Shown: one piece after another, positions 3,049 to 53,340 of the stretch
How positions within the stretch are numbered: the stretch's first letter is position 1
Layout of the letters: every line of letters starts with the position of its first letter
Source of the DNA: Alphaproteobacteria bacterium
GTDB taxonomy: Bacteria; Pseudomonadota; Alphaproteobacteria; Rs-D84
Assembly (NCBI GenBank): GCA_017524525.1
Contig: JAFXVM010000006.1
Coordinates: 24,819-88,818 of the forward strand
DNA length: 64,000 nt
Reading direction: 5' to 3'
Position numbers and translations under genes: made by a program
The notes under the pieces: generated by a model
The model's input: the letters and a program-made list of their open reading frames with translations, nothing else
The model's database searches: none
What the model was told of the DNA's origin: nothing

Positions 3049-4800
3049 TTAGACTTGCTTTTCTTCGGGCGTATGATCTGGTTGGAAAATTTCAACATCT
3101 CGGGTCATAGATAAAAATTTCTTTACCCGATTTGGCACCAATTCTTCAATTGGAATTTCTTGCAATTCTTTGATTGCGTCTGCCACCGTTTTACCAACCA
3201 TTTCCATTGTAGTTTGCCAATCTTTGTGCGCCCCGCCCGCTGGTTCGTCAATGATTTTATCAATTACATTTAATGACGCCATATCACGCGCGGTTAATTT
3301 AAGTGCAGTTGCTGCCTGGGCTTTGAATTTGTTATCTTTCCACAAAATACTTGCGCAAGATTCTGGTGCAATCACAGAATAAATAGCGTTTTCAAGCATA
3401 AACACTTTATCACCCGTACCAATTGCTATGGCACCCCCAGAGCCACCTTCGCCAACATTAACTGCAACATAAGGGGTCTTGACCTTTAACCCAGCGGCGA
3501 TTGTCGACGCAACCGCTTGTGATTGACCGCGTTCTTCGGCGGCACCCCCAGCAAATGCGCCAGCAGTATCAAACAAAGAAATCAAAGCCAAATCAAATTT
3601 TTCAGCCAATTTCATTAACCGCTGAACCTTGCGATAACCCTCTGGGTTTGCCATACCAAATCTGTGTTGTTGACGGGTTTCAATTGTTCTGCCCTTTTCT
3701 TGACCAATAACAACAGCTGGTATGCCATACCAATAACCAATACCGCCACACATTGCCGCATCTTCGCCAAAACATCTATCGCCTGCAAGATACGTCCATT
3801 TATCAACAATTCCATTCACATAATCCAAGAAATGCGGTCTGTTTTCATTACGCGCCAAAAGCACCCTGTCGTATTCTGGGGTTTTGCCCATATCACGAGA
3901 TTTTTTCGGCATGTCAAATTTTGGTGTTTTAACATCTATGACCTTTGGTTCGTTTGGTTGTTTAGTAAGCACAGTTAAAACGCGTTCCAAAACTTCTTTT
4001 AAACCAGAACGTTCAACAACTATGTCAACCATACCATGTTCATACAAATAGTCTGCATTTTGGAAATTAGACGGTAATTTTTCATGAATATTTTGTTCAA
4101 TTACACGACGACCAGCAAAACCAATACGTGCGCCCTTTTCCGCAATATGAACATCACCCAACATTGCAAAAGAAGCAGTGACCCCACCAAAAGTTGGGTC
4201 TGTTAATATCACGATATATGGCAATTTATTTTCGTGTAATTTGTTAACCGCCACAGTTGTACGCGCCATTTGCATTAACGACAAAATATTTTCTTGCATA
4301 CGAGCGCCACCACTGCATGTCACCATAACAAAAGGATTTTTTAATTCGATTGCATGTTCAATACTTGCAATAATCGCATCCCCAGCAGCGCGTCCCATAG
4401 ACCCCATCATAAAATCACCGTTCATAACACATACAGTTGAATTTATGCCACCTATTTTTCCGTCTGCTGTGGTAATAGCATCGCGTGTTCCCGCGTCTTC
4501 ACGAGCCTCAGCCAATCTTTCTTTGTACGGAACACGGTCTGTAAAATTAAGTGGATCATCTGTTGCAACTGGCAAATCTATTTTTTGCCAATCTATGTCA
4601 TCAAACAACAAATCAAATCTTTGTTTTGGATTCATTATAAAAGCACGTCCACAACGCGGACAAACATAATGATTGTTTTTATAATCTTTGTAAAACACAA
4701 GACGACCGCACGCTTCGCACTTTATCCACATCAACCTGCGCACACGATCATATTTTTCACGATTATGATTTTTTATTCCAACAGACATTTGATTATCCAT
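3049..4800 (-). CDS. accDA: acetyl-CoA carboxylase carboxyltransferase, fused beta (AccD, N-terminal, Zn-ribbon CxxC..CxxC) and alpha (AccA, C-terminal) subunits
   Basis: 583-aa single ORF. The N-terminus has CEACGRLVFYKDYKNNHYVCPRCG, the Zn finger of AccD. The rest aligns to carboxyltransferase beta and then alpha (GGARMQE..., ...GGSGGAIAIG). Confidence 0.85.
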   Translation of the reverse strand: MDNQMSVGIKNHNREKYDRVRRLMWIKCEACGRLVFYKDYKNNHYVCPRCGRAFIMNPKQRFDLLFDDIDWQKIDLPVATDDPLNFTDRVPYKERLAEAREDAGTRDAITTADGKIGGINSTVCVMNGDFMMGSMGRAAGDAIIASIEHAIELKNPFVMVTCSGGARMQENILSLMQMARTTVAVNKLHENKLPYIVILTDPTFGGVTASFAMLGDVHIAEKGARIGFAGRRVIEQNIHEKLPSNFQNADYLYEHGMVDIVVERSGLKEVLERVLTVLTKQPNEPKVIDVKTPKFDMPKKSRDMGKTPEYDRVLLARNENRPHFLDYVNGIVDKWTYLAGDRCFGEDAAMCGGIGYWYGIPAVVIGQEKGRTIETRQQHRFGMANPEGYRKVQRLMKLAEKFDLALISLFDTAGAFAGGAAEERGQSQAVASTIAAGLKVKTPYVAVNVGEGGSGGAIAIGTGDKVFMLENAIYSVIAPESCASILWKDNKFKAQAATALKLTARDMASLNVIDKIIDEPAGGAHKDWQTTMEMVGKTVADAIKELQEIPIEELVPNRVKKFLSMTRDVEIFQPDHTPEEKQV

Positions 4801-6590: not shown

Positions 6591-9500
6591 ATGGAAAAAA
6601 CACGGTTTTTTGCATGTTTTGTGCGTATGTTTAACGCGATGTGTTTCGCGATTTGTGCTGTGTTGTTTTCTTCAAACGCTTATTCAACTTGTGCAACTGG
6701 TTATCATGAACAGACCAATCCTTTAGATTCTACTATCTATAATAAAAAAATGGTTGGTTTTATGTATAGAGACCCAACTACAGAAACAGATTTTGTTTCC
6801 TATGGAACTAACTACCATACAACTAACTATGCTACTGGTATATGGGTATCAGCAATGAAAAATCCTGGTTCTCAACTTATGGAAGACACTTTTGTTGGTG
6901 GTCATGCATTCTGCGCAGCAACAGGTAGCGAAAATGATTATCATAAATCCAGGACAACTTTCGCGACATCAAACAACATTACAACAACAGAACCCGGCTC
7001 TTATTGTTGGTGTCAACTTTATGCATTATATGTATACAACTGGCAATATTTTTCTGGAACATGGGTGGCTCTTAACAACCTGGGAAGTCATGACAATTGT
7101 GCAAATAATACCTGTGCACAGGAATGCGCAAATGAAATGCATAACAACCCATCGTTCCGTCAGGCTATTTATTCTGTGCCATATTGTGTTGCTGATGATA
7201 CACCACATATATATCCTATAAACTATTATAATGTCGCGCACGCTACGTGGAATTTAAACCAAAATCACCCATATGGTTACACCACTGGGCAAGAAATAAC
7301 TTTAGGAATTCCATCTCGACAAAATTATGATTTTGTTGCTTGGTGCGATAATGCAGAATTAACAGAAAACTGTATGTTTACAAAGACTATACCTGCAGAT
7401 TCTGTCGGGACAAAATCTTTTTATGCAAAATGGGATTTTGCAAATTCTGATTGCCAAGATGGCTATAAACATGTTTGCTTGATAAACTTTGATGTATTAA
7501 ACCAAAACAGATTAGGATATGCATATAAGCCGATTGATGGTTCTGAAGTTCAAACTGAAGGTGACAAAACAACAGAAACATACAATTTGACCCAACCTGG
7601 TGAATGGGGTGTTTCTTTTGAACACGGGGACTTGAAGGGCATATCTAAGTGTGCTACTACCGCATCTACTTCTGATGGGAACGGTCATCTTTGTTGGTGC
7701 AAAACAACAGATTTTATACCTTCCGACACAGAAGACACGACGTGTCATTCAGAGACAGGACTTTGGACATATTCTGATGATCTCGTGAACGATAATCATT
7801 GTTCTAAATACTGCCCGCTAAGCTGTGTTAAAAAAAATCCTGTCACAGATAACTTATTCGGTAGGAACTCTTATTTTTGGGAATATTTTGCGAACGAAAA
7901 TCTTTCTGAGTGTGTGATTGATAAATATAAAATAAATTATGTATTGAACGGTGGCCTTTTCCCTAATGAACGACTTTCGTATATATATTTGAATCGTGTA
8001 AATGATGTATCTGCACCAACAACATACCAAATCACAGATACTGTTCTTATACCGCGCCCAGCACGAGAAAATTTTGTCTTTGGCGGATGGTACACAGAAC
8101 CAGATTTTTCTGGAGAACCTATTTTTGATGGTTTTGGCCCAGGAGAATTTGGCAACATAACACTTTATGCGAAATGGATAGAAAAAACTTGTTCCGAACA
8201 TTACACTTTGTCTTATCCTGCAAACATTGAAGGCCATTATATCTACAGCGGCAACACATGGGAAGTAACCTTTCCTTTTGGTGTCGTATCAGGAACAGGT
8301 TATACATCACAGTGGAACAAAAACAGATGTGTCTGCAAAGCAACAAGCTTTACACCAAAGAATGGAACAACACAAGATATTGTGTTTGCACCGGAAGGCG
8401 CTGCTGGTAGAACCAAAAATTGTGCCTATTATTGTTCGTACGATATTGCACATGATATTTATACCAGAACACCTACGTTTGCAGGAACGGTGCTTCAAGA
8501 CCCTGTTTGCTTACCGATTGAATATACAATCCATTTCGAATCAAATGGTGGAACAAGTTATAGTGATAGACACTACAACGTTGAATCTGATAATATAACT
8601 CTACCAGAACCTGCGCGCAGAGGATATCACTTTGATGGCTGGTATGAAAACGAGGACTTGTCAGGCACAAGCGTCACAACAGTTTCTTCAGGAACACCGG
8701 GCAACAAAACATTTTATGCCAAATGGAGTTTTGTTGGTTGTCCTGCAGGATATGTCGCACAAGATACAGATTCTGGCAAAATCTGTCAACCAATTACCTA
8801 TACGATACATTTTGTATCTAATAGTGTACTAAATTTTGATGATATACCATACACCATCGAATCAGAAGACATAGAATTGCCTACTGATATTTCGGAACAA
8901 AACGGACTGCCATTTGTTGGCTGGTATGAAGACGACAGTTTTTCAGAACCAGCCATTACACTTGTCCCCAAAGGTTCAACTGGCGATAAAATTTTCTATG
9001 CAAGATGGTTACAAAACACGTGTAGCACAGTTAATACAACCGCTAATAATTTGATTAGTTTGGTGGATGTAGAAACCCGCGGTATATCCACGTACAATTT
9101 TAACCACGGAGATTGGTTTGTTATCTTTGATTACGGCAAATTGCAAGGTAGAGGGATATGCAGCAATATGACAGGGGACATCGGCACAAAAGCAGATACT
9201 GTTACAGAATCAGAAAACGGTTCTAATTGTTGGTGTAATATAACTAAATTCACCCCCGCAAACGGTATAATAAAAGAAGCAACTTCTCCGTGGTTTTCCG
9301 TTGGTAGCCAGTCTGATTGTTCAAAAACCTGTGCTACAATATGTGGTGCATATACTTTTAAAAATCATAATAATTTTTATACTGTTGTAAAACCTGCGTA
9401 TTATTTAACCAATGTTTGTAATGCGCCAGTGTATACTATACATTATAATTCTAATTACGGGACAGAATACGAAGATCAACAATACACAGCTATTTACGAC

Positions 9501-12500
9501 ACTATAACATTACCGACACCAACTCGTGCTGGTTATGCTTTTGCCGGATGGTATGACAATGACAATTTTGAAGGAGAACCTGTGACACAAGTCGCGTCTG
9601 GTTCTACTGGCAACAAAACATTTTGGGCGAAATGGAACTTTATTGATTGTTCGACAGGATATATAGAGCAAGAAACAAATGGTGTAAAAACCTGTGTGCT
9701 AGTTAAACATTCTATTACATATATAGATGAAGATACAGAACTAGACTTAGAACCATCAACTTATGATATCACCACACTTGGAACAAGTTTGCCGTCTGCG
9801 CCACAAGGGTATTCAAATTTTATTGGTTGGTGTTTAGATTCTTCTACTTGTTTTTCAACCATTAATAAAATACCAACTGATTGGACAGGCGACAAAGTTC
9901 TTTACTTAAAAAAATGCCCCACAAACTATAAACTTGGGACACCTTTTTCTGTTGATAGTCGCGCAACAAAATGGGCAGCAAAGTCGGCATTGACTGGTGA
10001 TGCAACTTCAGCCTCAGCTTATGGATTAACAACTCATGGCGAATGGGGAGCAACTTTTGATTCTGGTTATATAGTTGGAACATCTTTATGCAGTCAAACA
10101 CCGGGGGGCACAAGGGGCGCAGTCGGTCAACCAGACGAGACTGGCGAAGGTGACACGAAGTATTGTTGGTGCAGAGTTACAAAATATGGTTTTCCAGAAC
10201 GAGAAGTCAATACCACTAAATGGGTCGCAGAGAACAACACAACAGACAATGTCTCCGCAGAATATTGTAATGGTTGGTGTGCTTATAACTGCGCTCAAAA
10301 AGCAGTGGCACTTACGTCTAATACTACTAGAGTAAACATGGCCACCATGTGCGTACCTGATTCTGAATACACAATAAATTATGTGTTAAACGATGAAAAC
10401 GCTGTTTTCCCGGTCACAGCTATAAAAGTACCGCATTCCTATATTTCTAGTGATTTACCAATCAGTTTAGAAAATGCTATACCTGTGCGTCCTTATTATA
10501 CATTTGAAGGTTGGTACGACAATGCAAATTTTGAAGGAACCGCTATCACAGAAATACTAAGCGGTGCAAATCAGGATATTACTTTGTATGCTAAGTGGTC
10601 GTGGACAGGTTGCCAAGACGGTTCATATTTAGATTCATCAACTAATACATGCGAAACGTGTCCGGATGGTTATATATCTAACGGGAAAACAGCAACCAGT
10701 AAAAACGATTGTTATGTTGAATGGAATTGCTCGGAAAACTTAGCTGGTTGCCCTCAAAATGCGACTTGTACATATATCGACCCTGACCACTTGTCTGGAA
10801 TCGATTATTATGGCAACAATACCCCACACTGCGAAATAAACGCTGTCTGCAATGCTGGCTATGTATCAAATAATGGTGCATGCACAGAACAAGAATACCC
10901 TATACAATACATCATTGATGGCGGAGATTTTCTTGGCACTCTTAATCAAAGCAATATACCGCGCACTTATACTGTTAGTTCCGTCATAGATTTATCAGGT
11001 ATAGTGGCATCACGTTCTGGATACACTTTTGAAGGATGGTACGACAATTCAACATTTGAAGGTTCTGCGATACCAAATTTATCAAATTTAGCACCTGGGG
11101 GAATCACGCTTTACGCGAAATTTGAACCCGTTGTATGTACTGTCATTTATGATAACGAAGGTGACGTAAGTCAAGAAACTTATTCTGGACAAAGCGTTAT
11201 TACTTTGCCAGTGCTTAGAAAAAATTCGTACACATTTGACGGTTGGTGCGAAGAAGATTTGGACACCTGCCCTGGTGGTCCAAAACAAACATTAACTGCC
11301 AGAAACGAAACAGTGAATTTATATGCTAAATGGGGTGATAAAAATTATACCATCACTTATATGGACGGGAATAATACGTTGTCACTTTTGGAACCAGAAT
11401 CTTATACAGAAAACAAATTGCCAGTAGATTTACCAACAACCGCATATTCAAGCAATGATGATTCTGTGTTTGACGGTTGGTATAACAATCCAGAATTAAA
11501 TGGGGATGCTGTCACAGAAATTCCTGCGGGTGCACAAGTGACAAACAAGATATTTTATGTAAAATGGCGTCCAAAATATTATGCTATAACATATATGGAC
11601 GGCGACATAAATGTGACAGCATCAATGCCTTTGATTGAAACAACAACCAGCAATGGTGAAGATATAACACTGGGAGAATTATCCGAAAAAAACGGTATGG
11701 CTTTTGTTGGTTGGTGCGACGATGCACAAGGTAATAATTGTTCTATGACAAAAAGACTTTATGCTAATACACCTGTGATTTTGTACGCACAACGCGAAGA
11801 AGCCACTTATCATATTACTTATAAAAATGGCGACACAGATATTACAAATGATGTTGCACCAGAATTTAGGACATACACTGTTAACAACCCGATTGTGTTA
11901 CCTGGTGCCAATGACGTGTCCGTTGAACATTATGTTTTTAATAATTGGTTGGACGAACATGATACAGTGATTAACACACTGCCATCGCAAACTGTTCCTA
12001 ATGGCGACTGTGTTTTACAAGGGAATTTTAGCCCTGTTCAATACACACTTTCGTTCACAGAAGATTCTATATCAAATATGCCTGCGTCTTCTGTCACGTA
12101 CAATATTGAAAACCTACCTAATTTGAATGCTCGTACACCAACAAATCCAGAATATGTATTCGTTGGATATAAAGATGCTGTTAGTGGTGAAATAATTTCT
12201 GCTATTACGGCCGAAAACGCAGGCAACATTGAATTAACACCAGAATATTCATACGTATCTTGTGACACCGGTTTTAAAACCCGAACATCAAACTCTGCCG
12301 TTTGGAACACCGCAAGAAATGGTATATTGAACAATTATTATGTGACACACCCCACAGCAAACGGTAGTGTATCTAGAGTATACAAACGGAAACCAACATC
12401 AAATTACACCATACCAACAGCCCCAACGTCGGGTTCAAATGCGCGTGCTGTTTGGGTAACGTTGTTTGACCAAGGACAAAGCAACCATGCTGAAATATAT

Positions 12501-15500
12501 GCTATGGGTGAAGCGAGTTGTAATTCAATTGCAGGTGTTGGGTATGAAACAGGCTCGGTAATGTTTTCTTCTTCCCGCCCAAGCAACGATATGAACAATA
12601 TAGCATCCACTGGTAATTATTGCTGGTGCCGTTTAACAAGTTATAAACCAGACAATCAGATTGTGTCAATCCAAGATACAGATTGGATTTATTTAAAAGA
12701 ATTTAGTTCTGCTGAAAATTGCGCTTCGCAAGGTAACGAATATGGTTCTCAATCTTGTGCTGCAAAATGTGGCGAAGCAGTAAGAACAAACGCCTTTTTC
12801 CGTTCACAGATATTTGATGATTTAGGTATATGCGCCGTTGGTATATACGATATTCGTTACAGATTAAATGGTGGCAATTGGGTGCAGTCTGATTCAATTA
12901 ACTGTGCTGAAAATGAATATTTTGATGACAATTCTAATGAATGTAAACCGTGCGCAAACGGGGAAAATTCAAGTGGTCATTCAAATTATTGTATTCCTGT
13001 AGAAACTTCTATGAATTATCATGCTATAAACCTGCCCCAGCCAGTCAGGACAGGATACGATTTCGCCGGATGGTGTGACGATGCAGATTTAACTGTTAAT
13101 TGTAAAACTGAAAAGGTTATTCAAACAGGCACCACCAACGATGTTTATGTTTATGCAAAATGGACACCAATAAATTATCAAATAACATACAATCTTGATG
13201 GTGGCACTTTGCCAAGCGATGTTTCTAACCCAACCGTATATCATATTGATGATACTATAGAATTGCCAATTCCAACCAAAACCGATTATATTTTTGATGG
13301 TTGGTATGAATGCGCAAATTATGAATGCAACAAAGTTTCTGTTTGGGGTCCCGATGAAACCGATGAAGACAAACAATTCTGGGCCAAGTGGAATATTGGT
13401 TCTTATACAATCACTTACGACAGACACGGTGGTGTTTTTGATGCAAATGTTGCAGACACACAAACATATACTGTTAATGACACCTCTAATAACAATTATT
13501 TAACACTTCTGAAACCTAGAAGACAGGGCTATGACTTTGTCGGCTGGTGCCTTGAAGAAGAAACACCATATCAAGAATGTGGTACAGAAGAAATAATCAC
13601 GGACGAAAGCACTTCGGGATGGAGTGGTGATAAAAAACTTCATGCAAAGTGGAATCTGGAAGATTATACCATAACCTATTATGATAACAATAACCCTATG
13701 ACTTTGGAAAACACAGAATGGGAAGACAACAGTACTGTGATAAATGAATATAATGTATCTTCTAAATATACATATCCAATACTATTACCAAAGCCTTTGA
13801 AATCTGGACACAGATTTGAAGATTGGTACAGCACAGTGAATTTAGATAATGACCCAGAAAATTCAACACCAATCAGCGAAATTGCTTTTGGAACAACTGG
13901 CAACAAAGATTTTTATGCAAAATGGGCTTGTGCTGCTGGATATTATGGTGACGGAACAACGTGTACAATTTGTGAGGCAGGCACCTATAGCGACACAACC
14001 AATGCCGCAAATTGCACAGCATGCCTATTAGGCCACACTTCTGCTGCGGGTGCCACCAGTTGTGTGGCGTGCACAAACACCGAACATGTCACAGAATGGG
14101 CTGATGCTCTATGCGGAATCAGTCAATGTGATACAGGTTACAAAATCGAATCCACACAAATAAGCGCAATTTCAACCGATGAAAATGGTATATATATGGC
14201 TTACACAATGCATGCGCCAGAACATCTTCAAAACAATAACATTGGTTGTTATAAAGACGGCGTTTATAATGATTGTAATGATTCTGTCTTTGATAACGTG
14301 TCAAAACCGCACGGTTGGCGTGTTGTGTTCCGTTATGGAACAGTGACGGGAACTTCTGTGTGCAGCACGACAGGTTCGGCACTTAATGTTGCTAACGCTA
14401 ATCAAGATATCTATGATATAAACACCCCTGATACAACAAGCGAAGGTGGCGCATATTGTTGGTGCAAAGCATTAGATTACGACAACCAAAGCCTTGCTGG
14501 ATCTTGGGTTTTTGCAACGGATTTTTCGGGTGCACATGCTACTTGCGAGAATTCTTGTGCGATGAATTGCACTGGTAAAGTATATCGCAATTCTGCGTTT
14601 AGGGAAGTTATGTTTGGTAACACCTATCTCAATAACGTCACGTTGGATACATTAACGTTTGATGAACCTTTGGACAAAGCTATGTGTGTACCAAAAGTTT
14701 TCCCAATAGTTTATCATAATATTGATGAGGTTATTTGGAACAACGGTGAAAACCATCCTGATTTTTATACTTTATTACAAAACGATGTCACCATTGGTCG
14801 TCCAACACGTCAAGGCTTTGTATTTATGGGTTGGTGTGAAACAGAAAATTGTGTTGATGAAACGCCACAAAATAATTATAGTTTTATCCCGAACGATAAA
14901 GCGGAAGGTCAAATAGATTTGTATGCTCAATGGACTTGTGCTGCTGGATATTATAAAAATGGCTCTGCGTGCAATGCTTGTCCACAAGACCCATACGGAA
15001 TTCAATATACATCACCAAACGAAAATACAGATGGAATCAACAGTTGTTATTATAGTTGCGCTAATGTATTTGAAGTTTTTTGTCCTGAACATTCTATCGA
15101 CTGCTTATACACTGGCGATTCAAATGCGACAAATTCTTATGGCTATGAAACCAACAATTGCACTATAAGTTTTAATTGTGACCCAGGTTACGGTGTTGAC
15201 GGTGCTTTGTGTTCTTTGAATACATATTATATAACTTATGTCGATACACTTGAAGATATTGCCAGTGAAAATCGTAAAACAAGCGAATCTTACACTGTCA
15301 ATGATTTACCTGTATCGAAATCGGTATCGCCAGAAAATACACACACCGGTTATGATTTTGACGGTTGGTGCGAAACAGATGAATTGACAGGCGATTGTTT
15401 AACAACAATTACAATTGATGTTAATACTATAGGCGATAAAACCTTCTATGCTCGTTGGACAACACAAAATTATACTATAACCTATCATAATAACGGTGTT

Positions 15501-18500
15501 GATTCAGAAGATTCTTATACATACGGAACAGGAAAAAATTTGAACGCGCCTGAGACACCAACGGGTTATGTTTTTGCGGGCTGGTATACAAACAGTGATT
15601 TTTCTGGCGAAGCAGTGCAAACAATCGCTGACACAGAAACAGGTTCTAAAGAATTCTGGGCAAAATGGACGTGTACTGCTAATTATTATCACGATTCTAA
15701 CACTTGTACGGCGTGTCCTGATTTATATCCAACATCTGTTGTCAATGACAACGAAGGTATTGGAAAATGTTATGCACAGTGTGAAACCATAACAGAATGT
15801 CCAGAACACGCTACATGCTCTTACGCAAATACAATTGACGACAAAGATTACTATAAAGAAAATGCAACAGAAACTTGTGTATCTGGTATTGAATGTGATA
15901 CGGGCTATGGTCTAGAAAACGGTGCATGCGTATTACAAACATACACTGTCACATTTATGGATGGCGAAACACAATTGCGCCAAGAATCATACACGATTAA
16001 TTCTGTTGAACCTATTGTTTCAACAACGCCGGGGAATTCAGGTGGCGAATTTGCTGGTTGGTGTGACAACGAAGATTTAACAGGTGAATGTTCAACGACC
16101 GTGACTGTTCAACCAAGTGATGCGACCGACAAAACATTTTATGCAAAGTGGACATGCGCAAATGGATATTATGGTTCTGCTTGCACACAATGTCCAGAAG
16201 GATACAGAAACACCGATGCAGGCGCAGCAAGAATAACAGATTGTTATAACATATATACTTGTCCAACAGAATGCCCGCCACATGCAGTGAGTTGCACTCA
16301 GCCAACAAAAGAATTTGTTAAGAATTATTATGGCGCAACAGAATTTGAATCTTGTGATATGGATGTAGTTTGTGAAGACGGGTACGAAGCAAAAACTATT
16401 GATAAGATTTACAAAAATAAAATCACTTATGAGAAGTATTTAAACGGCGATTCTTATAAAAAATTAGACAAACAAACCTTTGGTTTCTACGCTTCGTATT
16501 ATAATACACCAGAAGCAATAACTGAAACAAGCCATCTGTTGAATGGTGAAACGGAACAGTTTTTTGATTACGGCTCTGTACGCATGGTTTCCACATGTGA
16601 TAGCGCCGCCTATAGCATATACAACCACGTATTAACTATTAACAACGAACCTGGAAGTAATTGTTGGTGCAAATTTACACAATATTCACCAGACGGAATA
16701 AATTATACAAACCTTGATTTTCCATGGAAACCTGGGTTGCCATGGCAAACCTATGAGCAATGTCTGGATTCCTGCGAGTGCGGTGGTGTTCCTGACAGTT
16801 GGTGGAGAAACCAAAAAGTTTGTAGTGCAAGAGAATATACAATTTATTTTGAAACTAATGGTGGTTATATTGAAACAAATAACAACTATATGCTTTATGA
16901 TGTGACAGCCGACCCGTTTGATTTACCAAAACCAACACGTCCGGGATACGATTTCGCCGGATGGTGCAACAATGAAAACTTAACTGGCGAATGTCCAATA
17001 ACAGTGACAATTCAACCAAGTGATGCAGAAAACAAAACATTTTATGCAAAATGGACACCTGTTGTTTGCGATGAAGACATGGTTGTAGCAACAAGGTTTA
17101 ACACAACAAAAGAACCAATAGCCTATTCATCCATAGAAATTGATGGTGTTGTTCGCACGACTGAAATGTTTTATCCTGGCAGATTACCAAACGCATACGG
17201 TTTAACAGAAAGCGGTACCTGGGCAACAGAATACGATTACGGAACCTTATATGGCGAAGCCGCTTGTAAGGACGCACCATATTATATGGGTGACTATAAA
17301 GCCAGTCCGGTTCCAGACGAAGTGTTTAATACATTTGCTGATACACCGTTTGTAACAATTGATACTGACGATTCTGTTTCCGCAACATGTTATTGCAAAC
17401 CAACTGCGTTTAAACCAACTTTTGGTTCGAAACAGGCTTTGTCCAACAATTGGAAAGAGCACGTTCATACATCCGCCTATGAGTGCAATATACATTGTGC
17501 ATACTATTGTTCACAGGATAAATCACGCGCAACTATACATCTGCTCGGTGAATTTACAAACACAAATTATTGTGCGTACAGAATTAATTATTATCATTTG
17601 AATGATGGGGAATTTGTGGCACCTGCTTTGCATCCAGACCATTATGATACAGGCGACAGGTTTACAATTGGGCAACCTGTGCGTCGTGGTTATACGTTTG
17701 CTGGCTGGTGTGTAGGTCAAGACAGGTGCAACAACACCCAAGAAAGTTTTGAAGTAAATTCTTCAACTGTGGGTGCTGTTGATTTATACGCACAATGGAC
17801 AGCGGGACAATACACTATTACTTATAATATGATGGGTGGCACACCAACATATCAACCAGAACAAAACACTGTCGGTATTATGGTGTATTTTCCAGACGAC
17901 CCAACAAAAGAAGGTTATGATTTTGCAGGCTGGTGTCCGAACAGTGAAACCTGTGAAAACCCTATAAAAACACAAACATGGGGTGGCGCAACAGAGGATA
18001 TAACCATGTATGCACAATGGGATATTAAAACTTATTATATTACCTATGTGTTTAATAATGGCGATGCAAGCGTGACAGAAGAACAAGATTTCAACGAACA
18101 AGTCATATTACGCAAACCAACAAAATCTGGTTTTACATTCGATGGTTATTGTGTTGATACAACAAATTGCAATCCATTGACGTTGCCTGTTGACAGCACA
18201 AGCGATTCTTGGGTTCACAGTGCTTGGAACAGAGATTTAACGCTTTATGCGAAATGGACACAAAATGTCGCAACCGAAGAATGCACGTCAAAGGCTTGGC
18301 TACATGTTGGCGAAGACAAAGCTTGTTTATCAAAAACCCCTGTTGAAAAACCAGTATTAGTAATTCAGGGTAAACACGGCAAATATTATTTACAAGCAAC
18401 CAAGGATTCAAATTTACCAATGAACAAAGATACAACGAAGCAATTACGTATACAAAAAGCAAATGATATATATAATGTACATGATGAAACCGTGTCCAGA

Positions 18501-18533
18501 AACGATACAGATAATTCTTCAACAGGGGTGTAA
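6591..18533 (+). CDS. giant secreted repeat protein (3980 aa): about 25 Listeria-Bacteroides (Flg_new) repeats, at least 8-9 novel Cys-rich 'CWC' modules, ephrin-receptor-like Cys repeats, conserved C-terminal domain
   Basis: Uninterrupted 11,943-nt ORF with an RBS AAGGGAAAGG and a signal peptide. It contains recurring ...YTITY..GG....LP.PTR.GY.F.GW........FYAKW units, recurring GEWG..F..G...G.S.C.....G.YCWC..T modules, and CAAGYYGDGTTCTICEAGTYSD-type repeats. Confidence 0.85.
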   Translation: MEKTRFFACFVRMFNAMCFAICAVLFSSNAYSTCATGYHEQTNPLDSTIYNKKMVGFMYRDPTTETDFVSYGTNYHTTNYATGIWVSAMKNPGSQLMEDTFVGGHAFCAATGSENDYHKSRTTFATSNNITTTEPGSYCWCQLYALYVYNWQYFSGTWVALNNLGSHDNCANNTCAQECANEMHNNPSFRQAIYSVPYCVADDTPHIYPINYYNVAHATWNLNQNHPYGYTTGQEITLGIPSRQNYDFVAWCDNAELTENCMFTKTIPADSVGTKSFYAKWDFANSDCQDGYKHVCLINFDVLNQNRLGYAYKPIDGSEVQTEGDKTTETYNLTQPGEWGVSFEHGDLKGISKCATTASTSDGNGHLCWCKTTDFIPSDTEDTTCHSETGLWTYSDDLVNDNHCSKYCPLSCVKKNPVTDNLFGRNSYFWEYFANENLSECVIDKYKINYVLNGGLFPNERLSYIYLNRVNDVSAPTTYQITDTVLIPRPARENFVFGGWYTEPDFSGEPIFDGFGPGEFGNITLYAKWIEKTCSEHYTLSYPANIEGHYIYSGNTWEVTFPFGVVSGTGYTSQWNKNRCVCKATSFTPKNGTTQDIVFAPEGAAGRTKNCAYYCSYDIAHDIYTRTPTFAGTVLQDPVCLPIEYTIHFESNGGTSYSDRHYNVESDNITLPEPARRGYHFDGWYENEDLSGTSVTTVSSGTPGNKTFYAKWSFVGCPAGYVAQDTDSGKICQPITYTIHFVSNSVLNFDDIPYTIESEDIELPTDISEQNGLPFVGWYEDDSFSEPAITLVPKGSTGDKIFYARWLQNTCSTVNTTANNLISLVDVETRGISTYNFNHGDWFVIFDYGKLQGRGICSNMTGDIGTKADTVTESENGSNCWCNITKFTPANGIIKEATSPWFSVGSQSDCSKTCATICGAYTFKNHNNFYTVVKPAYYLTNVCNAPVYTIHYNSNYGTEYEDQQYTAIYDTITLPTPTRAGYAFAGWYDNDNFEGEPVTQVASGSTGNKTFWAKWNFIDCSTGYIEQETNGVKTCVLVKHSITYIDEDTELDLEPSTYDITTLGTSLPSAPQGYSNFIGWCLDSSTCFSTINKIPTDWTGDKVLYLKKCPTNYKLGTPFSVDSRATKWAAKSALTGDATSASAYGLTTHGEWGATFDSGYIVGTSLCSQTPGGTRGAVGQPDETGEGDTKYCWCRVTKYGFPEREVNTTKWVAENNTTDNVSAEYCNGWCAYNCAQKAVALTSNTTRVNMATMCVPDSEYTINYVLNDENAVFPVTAIKVPHSYISSDLPISLENAIPVRPYYTFEGWYDNANFEGTAITEILSGANQDITLYAKWSWTGCQDGSYLDSSTNTCETCPDGYISNGKTATSKNDCYVEWNCSENLAGCPQNATCTYIDPDHLSGIDYYGNNTPHCEINAVCNAGYVSNNGACTEQEYPIQYIIDGGDFLGTLNQSNIPRTYTVSSVIDLSGIVASRSGYTFEGWYDNSTFEGSAIPNLSNLAPGGITLYAKFEPVVCTVIYDNEGDVSQETYSGQSVITLPVLRKNSYTFDGWCEEDLDTCPGGPKQTLTARNETVNLYAKWGDKNYTITYMDGNNTLSLLEPESYTENKLPVDLPTTAYSSNDDSVFDGWYNNPELNGDAVTEIPAGAQVTNKIFYVKWRPKYYAITYMDGDINVTASMPLIETTTSNGEDITLGELSEKNGMAFVGWCDDAQGNNCSMTKRLYANTPVILYAQREEATYHITYKNGDTDITNDVAPEFRTYTVNNPIVLPGANDVSVEHYVFNNWLDEHDTVINTLPSQTVPNGDCVLQGNFSPVQYTLSFTEDSISNMPASSVTYNIENLPNLNARTPTNPEYVFVGYKDAVSGEIISAITAENAGNIELTPEYSYVSCDTGFKTRTSNSAVWNTARNGILNNYYVTHPTANGSVSRVYKRKPTSNYTIPTAPTSGSNARAVWVTLFDQGQSNHAEIYAMGEASCNSIAGVGYETGSVMFSSSRPSNDMNNIASTGNYCWCRLTSYKPDNQIVSIQDTDWIYLKEFSSAENCASQGNEYGSQSCAAKCGEAVRTNAFFRSQIFDDLGICAVGIYDIRYRLNGGNWVQSDSINCAENEYFDDNSNECKPCANGENSSGHSNYCIPVETSMNYHAINLPQPVRTGYDFAGWCDDADLTVNCKTEKVIQTGTTNDVYVYAKWTPINYQITYNLDGGTLPSDVSNPTVYHIDDTIELPIPTKTDYIFDGWYECANYECNKVSVWGPDETDEDKQFWAKWNIGSYTITYDRHGGVFDANVADTQTYTVNDTSNNNYLTLLKPRRQGYDFVGWCLEEETPYQECGTEEIITDESTSGWSGDKKLHAKWNLEDYTITYYDNNNPMTLENTEWEDNSTVINEYNVSSKYTYPILLPKPLKSGHRFEDWYSTVNLDNDPENSTPISEIAFGTTGNKDFYAKWACAAGYYGDGTTCTICEAGTYSDTTNAANCTACLLGHTSAAGATSCVACTNTEHVTEWADALCGISQCDTGYKIESTQISAISTDENGIYMAYTMHAPEHLQNNNIGCYKDGVYNDCNDSVFDNVSKPHGWRVVFRYGTVTGTSVCSTTGSALNVANANQDIYDINTPDTTSEGGAYCWCKALDYDNQSLAGSWVFATDFSGAHATCENSCAMNCTGKVYRNSAFREVMFGNTYLNNVTLDTLTFDEPLDKAMCVPKVFPIVYHNIDEVIWNNGENHPDFYTLLQNDVTIGRPTRQGFVFMGWCETENCVDETPQNNYSFIPNDKAEGQIDLYAQWTCAAGYYKNGSACNACPQDPYGIQYTSPNENTDGINSCYYSCANVFEVFCPEHSIDCLYTGDSNATNSYGYETNNCTISFNCDPGYGVDGALCSLNTYYITYVDTLEDIASENRKTSESYTVNDLPVSKSVSPENTHTGYDFDGWCETDELTGDCLTTITIDVNTIGDKTFYARWTTQNYTITYHNNGVDSEDSYTYGTGKNLNAPETPTGYVFAGWYTNSDFSGEAVQTIADTETGSKEFWAKWTCTANYYHDSNTCTACPDLYPTSVVNDNEGIGKCYAQCETITECPEHATCSYANTIDDKDYYKENATETCVSGIECDTGYGLENGACVLQTYTVTFMDGETQLRQESYTINSVEPIVSTTPGNSGGEFAGWCDNEDLTGECSTTVTVQPSDATDKTFYAKWTCANGYYGSACTQCPEGYRNTDAGAARITDCYNIYTCPTECPPHAVSCTQPTKEFVKNYYGATEFESCDMDVVCEDGYEAKTIDKIYKNKITYEKYLNGDSYKKLDKQTFGFYASYYNTPEAITETSHLLNGETEQFFDYGSVRMVSTCDSAAYSIYNHVLTINNEPGSNCWCKFTQYSPDGINYTNLDFPWKPGLPWQTYEQCLDSCECGGVPDSWWRNQKVCSAREYTIYFETNGGYIETNNNYMLYDVTADPFDLPKPTRPGYDFAGWCNNENLTGECPITVTIQPSDAENKTFYAKWTPVVCDEDMVVATRFNTTKEPIAYSSIEIDGVVRTTEMFYPGRLPNAYGLTESGTWATEYDYGTLYGEAACKDAPYYMGDYKASPVPDEVFNTFADTPFVTIDTDDSVSATCYCKPTAFKPTFGSKQALSNNWKEHVHTSAYECNIHCAYYCSQDKSRATIHLLGEFTNTNYCAYRINYYHLNDGEFVAPALHPDHYDTGDRFTIGQPVRRGYTFAGWCVGQDRCNNTQESFEVNSSTVGAVDLYAQWTAGQYTITYNMMGGTPTYQPEQNTVGIMVYFPDDPTKEGYDFAGWCPNSETCENPIKTQTWGGATEDITMYAQWDIKTYYITYVFNNGDASVTEEQDFNEQVILRKPTKSGFTFDGYCVDTTNCNPLTLPVDSTSDSWVHSAWNRDLTLYAKWTQNVATEECTSKAWLHVGEDKACLSKTPVEKPVLVIQGKHGKYYLQATKDSNLPMNKDTTKQLRIQKANDIYNVHDETVSRNDTDNSSTGV

Positions 18534-18884
18534 TGTAATTTATCCAAACTAGATACAAGTCTTACCGGCGCAAGTTACACACAAAATTCTGACGGCAGTT
18601 GAGCAACAACATTTAGCTATGGTGTTATTGGTGGTAATGCGATGTGCGGAACACGATGCGTTGGTAATAAATCTGTCCTGAACGGCGTACCAGATGGAGC
18701 AGGAAGCTGTTGCTATTGTCAAATAACCAGTTATAAACCCCAGAATGAAGACACCTGCTTAATATCTTCTGCCCCTTGGGTGCAATCAATGCAATTTTCT
18801 AGTTGTACCCCATATAATTGTGCTAGCAAATGTAGTTCTCTTGTCAAAGATTGGGCGGAACTTCGCAATTCTATGTATAATTAA
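18534..18884 (+). pseudogene. relic/fragment of a CWC-module paralog, in frame with the giant ORF but separated by TAA (18531) and TGA (18600)
   Basis: The same reading frame continues after the giant stop: CNLSKLDTSLTGASYTQNSDGS*ATTFSYGVIGGNAMCGTRC...GSCCYCQITSYKP...W...C...C...C. The TGA sits exactly where the module's invariant Trp (TGG) belongs. Confidence 0.6.
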
Positions 18885-18891
18885 TAGATGA

Positions 18892-20085
18892 TTAAACATC
18901 AAAATCGTATGAATTGATAGATTTTACGATGGCGGCGACGAGTTTATTTTGATGGTCGTCTGATTTCAAAAGTTTTTCTTCGTTTTTATTGGACAAATGT
19001 CCCAATTCTATCAATGCACCCGGCACGGTTGAACGCAACACAGCGAATGGTGCATGACGGACAGACGGTCCCTTTTGTTGTTGAATCGATGCACGAGATA
19101 AAGATTTTGCACAACTGTTTGCGTATTCTTCACTTAATTCCGCCACAGCGTGTTGTTGCAAGGCAGACAAAGCAACACGAATATCTTTGGAAAATTGTTC
19201 AAACCCATTTACATCGATTTTATCAGCAGCATTTTCTGAATCTGCCAATTTTTGCGCTTCTTCGTCCGAAGCCTTTTCAGACAAAGTGTACACAGAAAAT
19301 CCGCGCATATCACGGCTAGGGTTCGCATTAGCGTGCAAAGATATAAACAAATCTGCACGTTTCTTTTCCGCAAATTCCGCCCGTTCAGCCAATTTCAAAA
19401 ACGAATCATTAGAACGAGTTAAATATGTTTTATAACCCGCACTGTCCAATTTAGATTTTAACTTTTTCGCAACTGACAAAACCACAGTTTTTTCTTGAAC
19501 ACCAGATTTTCCAATACACCCCGGATCTTTTCCACCGTGTCCAGGGTCAATTACTATGACATGTTGTGTTTGTTTCGTTTGTGGTTTTGCTTCTTCTTTC
19601 TTTTGTGTTGGTTGCTGGGTAGCCGCCCTGCCCGTTGTTGCAGTGCTCGTTATCCCTCGACCAGTTCCAGATTTAAAATCAATCACCAGACGATAATCAT
19701 TATCGCCATTTGGTTCCAAAATCATTATTTGTTTTTTATCAATCGCATCAATCGCCCCAGAAAGCGCAGCCGCAACCTGTAAAGTAGAACCATTTTGAAT
19801 TTGTGTAATTCTTTTAATCAAAGTTCCTTTGGCTAGATTTGTTTTTGCGTCTGTTTTTCCGTTTGTATTAGATAAATTTACATTTAATTGTTTATCGCCA
19901 TAAGACAAAGTATATGATGGTCGCGACGCCGTTTCAATTACCAGACGTGTCTTACCCCCGGGTTGTGTCCCCGTCCGAATTGAACGTACTGTGTTTGGCG
20001 CAGAAAACGCCACACGTGGTGCAATACCAATAACCAACGCACTGAAACTGACTGTTTTAAAAACCTGCCTTCTCGATATTTTCAT
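18892..20085 (-). CDS. amiC: N-acetylmuramoyl-L-alanine amidase (AmiC-like, AMIN + Amidase_3), Tat-type signal
   Basis: MKISRRQVFK twin-arginine motif and VIVIDPGHGGKDPG...LFISLHANA amidase_3 motifs. The ATG at 20085 is preferred over the upstream extension. Confidence 0.8.
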   Translation of the reverse strand: MKISRRQVFKTVSFSALVIGIAPRVAFSAPNTVRSIRTGTQPGGKTRLVIETASRPSYTLSYGDKQLNVNLSNTNGKTDAKTNLAKGTLIKRITQIQNGSTLQVAAALSGAIDAIDKKQIMILEPNGDNDYRLVIDFKSGTGRGITSTATTGRAATQQPTQKKEEAKPQTKQTQHVIVIDPGHGGKDPGCIGKSGVQEKTVVLSVAKKLKSKLDSAGYKTYLTRSNDSFLKLAERAEFAEKKRADLFISLHANANPSRDMRGFSVYTLSEKASDEEAQKLADSENAADKIDVNGFEQFSKDIRVALSALQQHAVAELSEEYANSCAKSLSRASIQQQKGPSVRHAPFAVLRSTVPGALIELGHLSNKNEEKLLKSDDHQNKLVAAIVKSINSYDFDV

Positions 20086-25692: not shown

Positions 25693-25722
25693 CCACGCCC
25701 CAAAACGGGGCGTTTTTTTTAT
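25690..25722 (+). terminator. rho-independent terminator after rnj
   Basis: aaccacgccccaaaacggggcgtttttttt. Confidence 0.6.
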
Positions 25723-25793
25723 AAAAAAGTTCTTGCCAAGACAGTATTATTTTTTCTATGATTCAAAATATATAAAGAGGAAGGAAGGACAAA

Positions 25794-28700
25794 ATGCCCT
25801 ATTTTTCGCGATTTTTACACAGATTAACCGTATGTGTTTTAGCATTTGTTGGGTTGTTTGCTGTGAATTCTTGTTTGGCAGCATATACTGTTAATTATTT
25901 GTGCGGGGATGGCACGGGTGAAACGCCAGCTGATGCTATAAACATTCAAACAGGCGCTGATTTTGTTCCTGCCGCAAATACTTGTACCACGCCAGAAAAC
26001 TATGAATTCGATGGTTGGTCTGTTAGTGGCACGAACGACGTCATACCTGCAAACACTCCATTTACATGGGAATATACGGAAAACAAATATTTTATTGCAC
26101 ACTATACAAAAAAAACTTCGTGTTCAGCAGGACAGAGTTGGGAAACATATACTTGTGATTTATCCGATGCAATTGTTGGTAATCCAAGCGGGAGCGAGCA
26201 AACCGGGGGCTGGGGAGCCAGAGCCATAAACGGTGCAACAGGAAGCGATTATACAAGACCTTTAAACAATTACCCATTAGCAAAAGGCGAATGGGTTAGC
26301 ATTATGTTTAGAGATACAATCAAAGGTCGAGCTTTCTGCAGTAACAGAGCAGGCAATGATTGGACTCTAACTTACCCAGACGACTATAAAGATGAGTGGC
26401 TGGCAAACGATTCAGAACTTATCGCTGCTGGCACAGGAGATTATTGTTGGTGCAAAATTTCTAATTCGCTGCGATACGATAACATTAAATCTGATTGGGT
26501 GTTTAGTAGTGGACATTTTTCATCATCGACCTGTTCTAGTTATTGTGCTATATTTTGTGCTCACCAATTCCGTGCACCATCATCAATTAATTCGGATTTT
26601 CGTCCTGAACTGTATAATGCCGTAACACGCGCCGAACAAGAAAAATGTGAAATCAATGCTAATTTATATTCTATAACCTATTCTAACCTTTTGAATGCGA
26701 CATGGGATGAAAATCAATTACATCCTGATTCTTATACAACTGGCGAAGAGATAACAATTGGAATTCCAACCCGCGAAGGATATACTTTTGATGGGTGGTG
26801 TGATGATGCCGAATTAACACAAAATTGCACAACAGAAAAAGTCATTCCCGCTGGTTCAACCGGCGATAAAACATTTTATGCTAAATGGACCGCTTTGCCT
26901 TGTGGTGTTGGCTATGAATCTCAAACAGACATATTTAGTGACACGGATTATTTTGCACCAGGTCGTGCTTATTCATATTTTGGTGCTGCTGATCGTAACG
27001 AACACTTTGTCAGCAACGGTTTAAACATAGATTTAGACAATACTTTGGAAGCATTGCCTGCTGGAAGATTCGAAATATTTTTCGCAACTGATGCTGATTC
27101 AAATACAGGCTTTCATGCCATGATGTATGGACGCGCGCAATGCAGTTCTACAGTTGGTTATACGGGCAACTGGGAGTATTCAGGACACGGTCAGTCTGTT
27201 CCAGATACAATCAGTGAAACCCCAGGTAATTATTGTTGGTGTCAATTTGATAAAATGGTTCCATATACAAAATCTGGTTCACAATGGGTGCCAAATGGTG
27301 AACCCATAGATTTTGTGACGAAATGGCTGTCACCAGGTGGTCAAACATGTACTCCATATTCTTGTGCTGGGTATTGCACCAAAAAGTTTCATGTCCAAAT
27401 ACCAGAACGTCAGGCACTGTATGGTCCGGGCGCCTTGCCACCATGCAAAATAAAAACATACACTATCAGTTATGAACTGGACGGTGGCGAATGGCCAATT
27501 GCACTTGTCAGCAAGCCTGAAACCTATAATATTACTTCCGCAACTATAAATTTACCAACGCCAGCCGAACGTGAAGGTTATACATTTACAGGCTGGTGTG
27601 ACAACGCAGAATTAACACAAAATTGCTCAACAGAAAAAATTATCGCGACAGGCTCAACTGGCAATAAAACGTTTTATGCAAAATGGACAGAGAATATTGT
27701 TGAACCTGAAGAGCCTGTTGAACCGGATACAGAACAAGAACCAACACCTGTGGATGAACCGGATGAGTGTGCTTTGGCTTCATGCGTTGTGACTATTGAT
27801 TTTGGTAATGGTCAAACAACCGAAAAGACATTTGACAACGGCGATGATTTGGTTATGCCTGTTCAAGCAGAACCAACCGGATCTGTGTTTAACGGATATT
27901 GTGAAGGTACACCAACGTGCACAGAACCACAAATGCGTTTAACCACAGAACAGATTGAAAATGGTGCAACTATGTATCCACAATACATACCTGTATCAAC
28001 AGGGATGACCGCACCGTCTGTTGAAGAAAGAACTTGTTTAAACGATGCCTGCGAAATAATTTTGAATTATGATGATTCAACAGAATCTTCTGCGAATATC
28101 GATTTGAATTCTGGATCGAACAACAGATCAGCTTCTGCTCTTCGCCGTGGCGGGATATTAAGAACGGCCACAACTAATCGTTCTGCCAGAACATTTAATC
28201 GTGGCGAATTATTAATTACACCTATGCTGGTCAAACAAGGTTATACTTTGCAAGGTTATTGCGTTGATGAAACTGATACATGTTCTGCACCAATTGCGGC
28301 AGTATCAAACATAAATCTTAACACAAAGAGCCGTGTGACTATTACACCAAAATGGAGTTCTAGTGGCTCTACCCCTGAAACCTATACCATAACTTATGAT
28401 ACTGCGGGTGGAACACCAACATATTCATCCGCAACATATACCATTGGCGATACCGTATCTTTGCCTGCTGACCCAACAAAAGAAGGTTATACTTTCAAAG
28501 GCTGGTGTGTAGACAGTGCAACTTGTGCAGAACCAATAGATACATCTACTTGGGCTGGTGCAACAAAAGATGTGACGCTTTATGCACAATGGGAAATTAT
28601 CTCGAATTCTGGATGTCAACCGGGATATTATTCATCACAAGATTCTGGGGAATGCACAATATGTGAAGAAAATCATTATTGCATTGGTGGCGAAAATTCG

Positions 28701-28976
28701 ACTATGAAATCTTGTCCATCTGGGCTGGTGGCACCAGTTGGAACGGTTTCTGCCAATGAGTGTGGCAAAATCATGCGGATTGGTGAAAATGTTCTTTATT
28801 TGACACAAAAACAACAAACTACACCTGCTTTGGCGGTCAAAATAGATGACAAGATATACTATGCCAAAACAACACCTGTGTCACAAATAGAACAACCGAC
28901 AAAACATTTTCTAAGAACAAGAATAGACGGTATCGAATATTCTATACACGATAATGCAATTCAAAGGAGAAATTAA
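25794..28976 (+). CDS. secreted CWC-module / Listeria-Bacteroides-repeat protein (1060 aa), mini-paralog of the giant protein
   Basis: Signal peptide; two CWC modules (GEWVSIMF...GDYCWCKISNS, ...GNYCWCQFDKM); three Flg_new repeats nearly identical to giant-protein repeats; a C-terminal ~65 aa homologous to the giant's C-terminus. Confidence 0.85.
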   Translation: MPYFSRFLHRLTVCVLAFVGLFAVNSCLAAYTVNYLCGDGTGETPADAINIQTGADFVPAANTCTTPENYEFDGWSVSGTNDVIPANTPFTWEYTENKYFIAHYTKKTSCSAGQSWETYTCDLSDAIVGNPSGSEQTGGWGARAINGATGSDYTRPLNNYPLAKGEWVSIMFRDTIKGRAFCSNRAGNDWTLTYPDDYKDEWLANDSELIAAGTGDYCWCKISNSLRYDNIKSDWVFSSGHFSSSTCSSYCAIFCAHQFRAPSSINSDFRPELYNAVTRAEQEKCEINANLYSITYSNLLNATWDENQLHPDSYTTGEEITIGIPTREGYTFDGWCDDAELTQNCTTEKVIPAGSTGDKTFYAKWTALPCGVGYESQTDIFSDTDYFAPGRAYSYFGAADRNEHFVSNGLNIDLDNTLEALPAGRFEIFFATDADSNTGFHAMMYGRAQCSSTVGYTGNWEYSGHGQSVPDTISETPGNYCWCQFDKMVPYTKSGSQWVPNGEPIDFVTKWLSPGGQTCTPYSCAGYCTKKFHVQIPERQALYGPGALPPCKIKTYTISYELDGGEWPIALVSKPETYNITSATINLPTPAEREGYTFTGWCDNAELTQNCSTEKIIATGSTGNKTFYAKWTENIVEPEEPVEPDTEQEPTPVDEPDECALASCVVTIDFGNGQTTEKTFDNGDDLVMPVQAEPTGSVFNGYCEGTPTCTEPQMRLTTEQIENGATMYPQYIPVSTGMTAPSVEERTCLNDACEIILNYDDSTESSANIDLNSGSNNRSASALRRGGILRTATTNRSARTFNRGELLITPMLVKQGYTLQGYCVDETDTCSAPIAAVSNINLNTKSRVTITPKWSSSGSTPETYTITYDTAGGTPTYSSATYTIGDTVSLPADPTKEGYTFKGWCVDSATCAEPIDTSTWAGATKDVTLYAQWEIISNSGCQPGYYSSQDSGECTICEENHYCIGGENSTMKSCPSGLVAPVGTVSANECGKIMRIGENVLYLTQKQQTTPALAVKIDDKIYYAKTTPVSQIEQPTKHFLRTRIDGIEYSIHDNAIQRRN

Positions 28977-29551
28977 TGTTAAAAAAATCGATATATTTAC
29001 TGCCCTTTTTTGTTATGGCTTTTTTGTTTAATGCCGTTGCTGCCCCCAGCATTGGATTGTTGAAACAGAATAAATCTAATACCAATATTGCAAAAACTGC
29101 CGCAATTACCCCAAAAAAACAACCCGTAGCAACGCCAAATATTGCGCGTGCTATACAAAATTCAAACACATCAAATTTAAACAAAGCTTCATCTGCTGGT
29201 TCTGCTAGATTGCCTGCGTTATTAGGTAAGATTCCTTTGGCAAATCAAAATACAAATACAAACACTAATATAAACACTAATGTAAACACTAATACAAGCA
29301 CCAAGCCTGTTACCAGTGGTGTATCAGAAAGTACATTTAATTCACTGGTGCAAAGGGTGGAAGTGCTGGAATCCAAAAATGAAAACACAATCATAGACGT
29401 TGTCGAAAACGGTTCTGGCGCATATGTTAATGATGTTACAAAAGAAGGAAACGAATTAAATGTAACAAAAACAGACATATTGTATGTCCCTGTTAAGAAT
29501 GCAAGTGGCACGACCGTTCCTGGTAATGCAGAAATTTGGATTATAAAATAA
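28976..29551 (+). CDS. small secreted protein with Asn/Thr-rich linker, translationally coupled to the upstream gene
   Basis: Its ATG overlaps the upstream TAA (TAATG). It has a signal peptide and a low-complexity NQNTNTNTNINTNVNTNTS stretch. Confidence 0.6.
   Translation: MLKKSIYLLPFFVMAFLFNAVAAPSIGLLKQNKSNTNIAKTAAITPKKQPVATPNIARAIQNSNTSNLNKASSAGSARLPALLGKIPLANQNTNTNTNINTNVNTNTSTKPVTSGVSESTFNSLVQRVEVLESKNENTIIDVVENGSGAYVNDVTKEGNELNVTKTDILYVPVKNASGTTVPGNAEIWIIK

Positions 29552-51337: not shown

Positions 51338-53340
<2,003 letters not shown>

Follow-up and report, generated by a model that had tools for sequence, protein, structure and literature searches.

The stretch of DNA analyzed here (64,000 nucleotides, positions 24,819 to 88,818 of contig JAFXVM010000006.1 in the assembly GCA_017524525.1 of an Alphaproteobacteria bacterium, GTDB lineage Rs-D84; hereafter, the window) encodes two exported repeat proteins, a giant of 3980 amino acids (aa) and a protein of 1060 aa, that end in divergent copies of the same small C-terminal domain (CTD). 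The CTD constitutes a new family with a new predicted fold, without a match in curated family or structure resources, and so far is known only from genome-reduced gut and rumen Alphaproteobacteria of the Rs-D84/Candidatus Enterousia group. It is joined to a wide variety of passengers, and one of its subtypes (A) is strictly paired with a gene for a small exported protein, here called the partner. Our tentative reading is that the CTD is a clade-specific docking or retention module and that class A docks to the co-encoded partner. The argument turns on the following features.

6591..18533 (+): giant exported repeat protein, 3980 aa (open reading frame (ORF) list, translation, Pfam)
18261..18503 (+): CTD of subtype B in the giant, C..WLHVGE..ACL...P.L.I....YYL.......N...K.LRI....YNVHD (envelope of the 88-member family hidden Markov model, E = 3.9e-28)
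25794..28976 (+): exported repeat protein of 1060 aa (ORF list, translation, Pfam)
28734..28970 (+): CTD of subtype A in the 1060-aa protein, CGKIMRIGE..LYLT...TTPALAVKID..YYAKTTP.....LRT.IDGIEYSIHDN (same model, E = 1e-28)
28976..29551 (+): partner gene, 191 aa (ORF directly 3' of the 1060-aa gene; proteins of this family have ~185 aa)

An earlier note on this DNA had aligned the ends of the two proteins as a conserved C-terminal domain, and the peptides that it quoted indeed lie in frame at 18279..18530 and 28758..28973, ending the two ORFs. Taken alone, the pairwise BLASTP match is weak and marginal (19 of 80 positions identical, 24 %; E = 5e-05), and a word-indexed homologue search with the CTD of the giant by itself returned no matches. 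An exhaustive search of 1.84 billion representative proteins with a profile of just these two sequences yielded 279 matches at E <= 1e-3, including 44 at E <= 1e-10. Homology of the two CTDs is established because these outside sequences link them, and the shared domain of the earlier note is thus real. The note had also considered a recent partial gene duplication as the sole source of the similarity; this can be ruled out because the two window C-termini show no similarity at the DNA level. Altogether, 153 copies of the domain were located in 152 proteins of 71 to 5140 aa, and in 139 of these copies no more than 20 residues separate the domain from the C-terminus. Other proteins ending in the CTD, for which the note had proposed to search the genome, thus exist in numbers among the database proteins.

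The consensus of the 88-member family reads G-x-(W/I)-L-H-(I/V)-G-(D/N/E)-x-x-x-(C/Y)-L ... K-x-T-x-P-A-L-x-V ... Y-Y ... T ... (M/I)-N ... T ... L-(R/H/K) ... Y-x-(V/I)-(H/Y)-D, with near-invariant aromatic, histidine and aspartate positions (Y38, Y39, Y67, H11, H70 and D71). AlphaFold2 (AF2) modeling of the CTD of the giant (predicted local distance difference test score, pLDDT, 88.3; predicted template modeling score, pTM, 0.74) produced six strands arranged as three beta-hairpins, and on the strength of this model the CTD is confidently predicted to be an autonomously folding, all-beta globular domain of ~70-75 residues. Pfam covers the C-terminus of neither window protein, the CTD lying outside the Flg_new repeat model that matches both of them, and a Pfam-A and NCBIfam scan of the 88 CTDs gave no matches, including to the Por_Secre_tail, RTX and autotransporter models, in agreement with the earlier remark that the domain fits no known motif. 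A profile search of all PDB sequences detected nothing significant, the best match being the choline-binding protein 3hia (E = 0.26), and Foldseek found no fold match in the PDB. The best structural match in BFVD was an uncharacterized Myoviridae protein (E = 0.21, probability 0.97, template modeling score 0.55); a phage link was dropped because tblastn searches of phage genomes and scans of viral contigs gave no significant match.

Both window proteins start with a Sec-type leader (basic, hydrophobic, A-x-A-like). In the giant, the signal-peptide-like N-terminus is followed by at least 21 Flg_new repeats, approximately nine copies of a Cys-rich module, which we denote CWC, and the terminal CTD of subtype B; its match to the Pfam Flg_new model (PF09479) comprises 21 stretches (526 bits, E = 8.4e-162; the cut-off is 27 bits). 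The 1060-aa protein consists of a signal peptide, two CWC modules, Flg_new repeats (138.5 bits, E = 8e-41, same cut-off), an ephrin-receptor-like Cys-rich module and a CTD of subtype A, and a database protein (P0001) is 97 % identical to it. The CWC module (~100-150 aa; G.W...F.YG...G...C...(n)...CWC..T.....W....C...C...C), exemplified by residues ~330-430 of the giant, recurs in many relatives, has no Pfam coverage and in relatives is sometimes placed after the CTD.

The wider set of carriers is likewise cysteine-rich and modular. By a crude rule, a signal-peptide-like N-terminus is present in 84 of the 140 carriers that start with methionine, and the other 56 appear to be mostly N-terminally truncated gene calls; one carrier, P0164 (locus L014), appears to have no signal peptide. 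Among 79 carriers compared with Pfam, the passengers include Flg_new repeats (35), Ephrin_rec_like (10), DUF7631 (5), BspA leucine-rich repeats (2) and thioredoxin (1), and many carriers lack any Pfam domain. Display and anchor modules show this pattern, a constant module combined with highly diverse passengers.

Despite the C-terminal bias, the position of the CTD is not fixed. It stands immediately behind the signal peptide, with another domain following, in P0232, P0242, P0255 and at locus L016; it occurs in tandem in P0136; and it precedes a CWC module in P0124, P0178, P0227, P0266, P0267, P0268 and the giant of the related locus L001. Binding modules typically show such mobility, whereas secretion signals that require the C-terminus to be free do not. 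The giant of the window itself belongs in this context. It has syntenic orthologues in L001 (4782 aa) and L018 (2143 aa), and across the region of the giant and the 1060-aa gene the DNA of L001 is 92-94 % identical to that of the window. Two further features were identified at its 3' end.

18531..18533 (+): TAA stop of the giant ORF, AAA (Lys) in L001 (sequence and DNA alignment)
18534..18881 (+): in-frame relic of a terminal Cys-rich CWC module (translation of 18483..18893 and DNA alignment to L001)

The two giant CTDs are ~93 % identical, and the relic is ~96-97 % identical to the 3' end of the gene in L001, where it is intact (both by eye). The L001 giant continues for ~125 residues past the CTD into one more CWC module; in the window, this sequence is nearly complete, and only the TAA and a TGA at 18600..18602, where L001 has TGG (Trp), break it. 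To judge from the alignment, the terminal position of the CTD in the giant is the product of a recent nonsense change, TAA at 18531, and reflects a truncation that is very recent or else a polymorphism among strains. The giant of L018 stops directly after the CTD. Because a CTD followed by CWC, as in L001, and a truly terminal one, as in L018, both occur naturally, a free C-terminus is not required. The earlier description of the domain as extreme-terminal holds for the 1060-aa protein, and for the giant just by reason of the recent stop codon.

At least four subtypes of the CTD can be distinguished.

Subtype A: '...EYSIHDN', usually after an ephrin-like module; the type of the 1060-aa protein
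Subtype B: 'C..WLHIG...CL...YN(V/I)HD', usually after a Flg_new repeat; the type of the giant
Subtype C: '...YSVYDD'
Subtype D: '...YTVHG/E'

Subtype A stands out by its genomic context. A homolog of the partner gene is located immediately downstream of the A-type CTD gene at 16 of 16 loci, whether the search starts from the CTD or from the partner; these comprise the window, the loci of ten metagenome-assembled genomes (MAGs; L004-L013), L018, L019, L020, L022 and L023. No partner gene follows any of the seven CTD genes of other subtypes (the window giant, two genes of L001, the CTD genes of L002/L003, L014/L015 and L016/L017, and the giant of L018). In the window, the start codon of the partner gene and the stop codon of the 1060-aa gene overlap (TAATG), and a Shine-Dalgarno sequence, AGGAGA, lies at 28965..28970, inside the last codons of the CTD, so that, by this arrangement, the partner gene is predicted to be translationally coupled to the 1060-aa gene. 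A consensus scan, our sole source for these signals, placed a terminator-like site at 25695..25713 and a promoter-like site at 25733..25762, upstream of the 1060-aa gene, and a terminator-like hairpin with a T-run at 29566..29584 (+), which would close the operon of the 1060-aa gene and the partner gene.

The partner starts with a signal peptide; the mature protein has a conserved N-terminus (A|xPSxxxLG), then a low-complexity linker of variable length rich in K, T and N, then a helix, and lastly a conserved C-terminal domain of four strands with AEIW(I/V)(V/I)K at its end. AEQKAD repeats extend the helix in L012. The AF2 model of the monomer is poor (pLDDT 45.6), with a helix at residues 118-133 followed by four polar strands of 5-7 residues each. 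Searches with the partner against Pfam, PHROGs, NCBIfam and PDB gave no match other than coiled-coil noise. At L020, positions 7569..12792 directly after a divergent pair of CTD-A and partner genes are occupied by a heptose/nucleotide-sugar cluster (glycosyltransferase family 2, epimerase, SIS, GHMP kinase and NTP-transferase-HAD), which may be relevant if the receptor in the envelope is a glycan.

The same pairing is retained at the syntenic position between the RNase J and rpsD genes in the window, L004, L018 and L022. The genes of the 1060-aa type at this position encode proteins of 446 (L004), 699 (L018) and 1670 aa (L022), and one of 1210 aa is found in L001. Among the orthologues with passengers of 446, 699, 1060 and 1670 aa, the CTD is the best-conserved part, and the conserved portion corresponds to the last ~200 residues (54-62 % identity). 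The L001 version is 67 % identical to the 1060-aa protein in its middle region, but ends in a B-type CTD, and L001 has no partner gene at this locus. On sequence comparison, CTD-A appears to have been replaced by CTD-B in L001, with CTD-A and the partner absent together. The 3' ends of the two loci (27719..29551 of the window and 12509..13633 of L001) are mosaic despite the 92-94 % identity of the DNA: the window side comprises Flg_new, the ephrin-like module, CTD-A, the partner gene and an ankyrin gene, and the L001 side a B-type CTD with DNA 72 % identical to that of the CTD of the window giant. Replacement of a cassette or gene conversion between paralogues is suggested by this mosaic structure and by the resemblance of the L001 CTD-B to that of the giant. 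The ankyrin-repeat gene (213 aa; 29608..30249 (-)) lies between the partner gene and rpsD and is missing from the same position in L001, L004, L018 and L022.

Our preference, which is tentative, is for docking or retention. The CTD would hold varied passengers at the cell envelope by binding a receptor there, rather than act as a translocation signal, and the family would have split long ago into classes of differing specificity (A, B, C and D). Class A, represented by the 1060-aa protein, would dock onto the co-translated partner of ~19 kDa encoded directly downstream, and the partner, through its signal peptide, the long flexible linker, the helix resembling a coiled coil and the small beta domain, would serve as a stalk attached to the envelope; class B, that of the giant, would use a different receptor. 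We prefer this reading because a constant module is combined with diverse exported passengers and because its subtypes are conserved, one of them locked to an exported partner; architecture and gene linkage are what suggest the docking itself, the surface location and the role of the partner. The sorting or anchor module that the earlier note had proposed as one of two options survives as the best description, and the obligate partner gene of the 1060-type lends it indirect support; the mechanism is the part that we infer.

Several other readings of the CTD deserve consideration. The CTD could be the ligand-binding tip of a lectin or adhesin, directed at a glycan or protein of the host, of food particles or of a partner cell, with anchoring provided elsewhere in the protein. 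The conserved aromatic, His and Asp positions would fit a carbohydrate or ligand site, the best, although non-significant, PDB profile match is a choline-binding protein built of hairpin repeats, and, given the reduced genomes of Rs-D84 (PMC12306168), adhesion to partners would be plausible. We nevertheless regard this possibility as rather unlikely: no other anchor (lipobox, transmembrane segment or barrel) is visible in the carriers, each CTD subtype is conserved across species while the passengers vary, whereas adhesive tips usually diversify, and a ligand made by the bacterium itself is indicated by the strict pairing with a co-translated protein.

Slightly less credible, in our judgment, is a signal for translocation across or sorting to the outer membrane, similar to the CTD of the type IX secretion system (T9SS), which would be read by a clade-specific translocon or a sortase-like enzyme and perhaps removed afterward, with the partner serving as an export helper of class A. 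The C-terminal bias speaks for such a signal, as do the small beta domain of a size like that of the T9SS CTD and the very diverse, Sec-dependent cargo, including giants that need to cross the outer membrane of a cell that is diderm according to its BamD gene. What speaks against it are the genuine N-terminal, internal and tandem CTDs and the L001 giant with its module after the CTD, the lack of secretion genes adjoining any of the ~20 loci inspected, and the negative Por_Secre_tail and Foldseek results. The T9SS CTD of Bacteroidota proper can be rejected, with none of the 88 CTDs matching PF18962, TIGR04183 or TIGR04131. The two resemble each other as small all-beta, C-terminal domains (~70-100 residues) on Sec-exported cargo that is very diverse, often very large and includes Flg_new proteins, in diderm bacteria; however, the T9SS domain is a seven-strand Ig-like sandwich as opposed to the three hairpins predicted here, and the present CTD is found in an alphaproteobacterium, also occupies N-terminal, internal and tandem positions, and in one subtype has a dedicated partner gene. 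No T9SS genes (PorK/L/M/N, Sov, PorU/V) were seen in any locus, the scan being confined to the loci.

A purely structural role, as a C-terminal cap, folding nucleus or oligomerization domain of long repeat proteins without any targeting function, seems improbable: a compact hairpin domain could well close long, beta-rich repeat arrays, but many carriers have just 130-300 aa and offer little to cap, N-terminal CTDs occur, and several conserved subtypes and a dedicated partner would be left unexplained. Finally, the small gene directly after the CTD and the apparent swap of the cassette between close relatives (the window and L001) bring to mind a filamentous protein that ends in a polymorphic toxin/immunity cassette, akin to CdiA-CT/CdiI or Rhs. 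This is exceedingly unlikely given that the variation is reversed (the CTD is conserved across species, at 52-80 % identity, and the N-terminal part is variable), that the partner is itself exported, with a signal peptide and a long linker, that subtypes B, C and D have no such downstream gene, and that no toxin or immunity family was matched.

Comparison with other known systems also bears on the two mechanisms that the earlier note had offered. Its first suggestion, a C-terminal signal of the type I secretion system (T1SS), has to be abandoned: both proteins have Sec leaders, GGxGxD repeats and HemolysinCabind matches are absent (Pfam detects only Flg_new and Flg_new_2), and the CTD is a folded domain of flexible position. 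Nor did the neighboring export locus envisaged in the note materialize, as families of the ATP-binding cassette (ABC) transporter, membrane fusion protein (MFP) and TolC were found neither among the window genes scanned nor near L001-L003, L014-L018 and L020-L023. The T1SS/RTX adhesins LapA and SiiE are similar in being giant repeat proteins with functional information at the C-terminus; unlike the proteins described here, T1SS/RTX substrates lack an N-terminal signal peptide, carry GGxGxD repeats and are encoded beside ABC/MFP/TolC genes. An autotransporter or YadA-type anchor was rejected as well because the carriers, CTDs and partner give no match to PF03797 (the C-terminal 12-strand beta-barrel) or PF03895 (YadA_anchor) and the CTD is polar and soluble-like. 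Closer in behavior are S-layer homology (SLH), CWB2, choline-binding, GW and LysM modules, which are modular, flexible in position and present on many unrelated passengers; choline-binding repeats also consist of beta-hairpins with conserved aromatic residues, and dockerin pairs with a dedicated protein receptor, cohesin, much as proposed here for CTD-A and the partner. However, all of these are mainly Gram-positive modules to which the CTD has no significant similarity (the best being 3hia) and no Pfam match, including to CW_binding_1. Both window proteins are members of the InlB B-repeat family (Flg_new) by virtue of their repeats, but this membership concerns the passengers and says nothing on the CTD.

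It is possible, although doubtful, that the CTD and the partner form a clade-specific surface-display or sorting system in which the CTD fold serves as a universal address tag for the entire repertoire of giant and small surface proteins. Equally uncertain is the proposition that such a system would be functionally equivalent, yet unrelated, to the T9SS CTD, sortase/LPXTG and SLH systems. Address or anchor modules at the C-terminus of surface proteins are familiar in concept; the domain and the partner are new, and with the CTD the databases would gain a domain family and a predicted fold that are both new. If the CTD is indeed an address or docking domain common to these proteins and served by a dedicated partner, it would allow all surface proteins of the clade to be listed from sequence, would offer in CTD-A and the partner a protein-protein pair amenable to testing, and would possibly reveal a new route of protein attachment to the Gram-negative surface.

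Members of Rs-D84, including Enterousia, are widespread in the guts of humans and livestock and have never been cultured. The host of the window is an alphaproteobacterium, as indicated by a permuted, two-piece alphaproteobacterial transfer-messenger RNA (tmRNA) at 52983..53336 (+) (161 bits to alpha_tmRNA) and by the named MAGs that carry CTD-A. A scan of one genome per species with the A-subtype alignment detected the CTD-A motif in ten MAGs from rumen, colon and faeces, all named Candidatus Enterousia, Alphaproteobacteria or 'uncultured proteobacterium', and the CTD-A of the 1060-aa protein is 52-78 % identical to their CTDs. The window has a G+C content of 38 % (37-43 % among all loci compared) and is collinear with several related contigs; a BamD gene is present in both the window and L014, which implies diderm cells. 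Enterousia belongs to the order Rs-D84. Genomes of this order are below ~1 Mb in size and lack the tricarboxylic acid (TCA) cycle and the respiratory chain, and the genome reduction of Rs-D84 has been discussed with regard to dependence on partners (PMC12306168). Genomes of this size and content fit a dependence on other organisms, surface proteins being the obvious candidates to mediate it, and a 12-kb giant gene would take up more than 1 % of such a genome.

Additional CTD genes are found at differing housekeeping sites of related genomes, for example in L014 (10001..10984, between the rubrerythrin and RlpA genes) and in L016 (10001..10948, near rpoD). Their absence from the syntenic positions of the window suggests that the repertoire turns over quickly.

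Two features of the window unrelated to the CTD were also noticed. A single ORF of 583 aa (3049..4800 (-)) encodes an AccD-AccA carboxyltransferase fusion (Zn-ribbon, Carboxyl_trans and ACCA) that is found in the related locus L016 as well. The tmRNA gene and the 5' end of the Obg ORF, as called mechanically (51939..53270 (-)), overlap; because of this overlap and because the Obg domain begins at residue 115, the true start of Obg is probably located further downstream.

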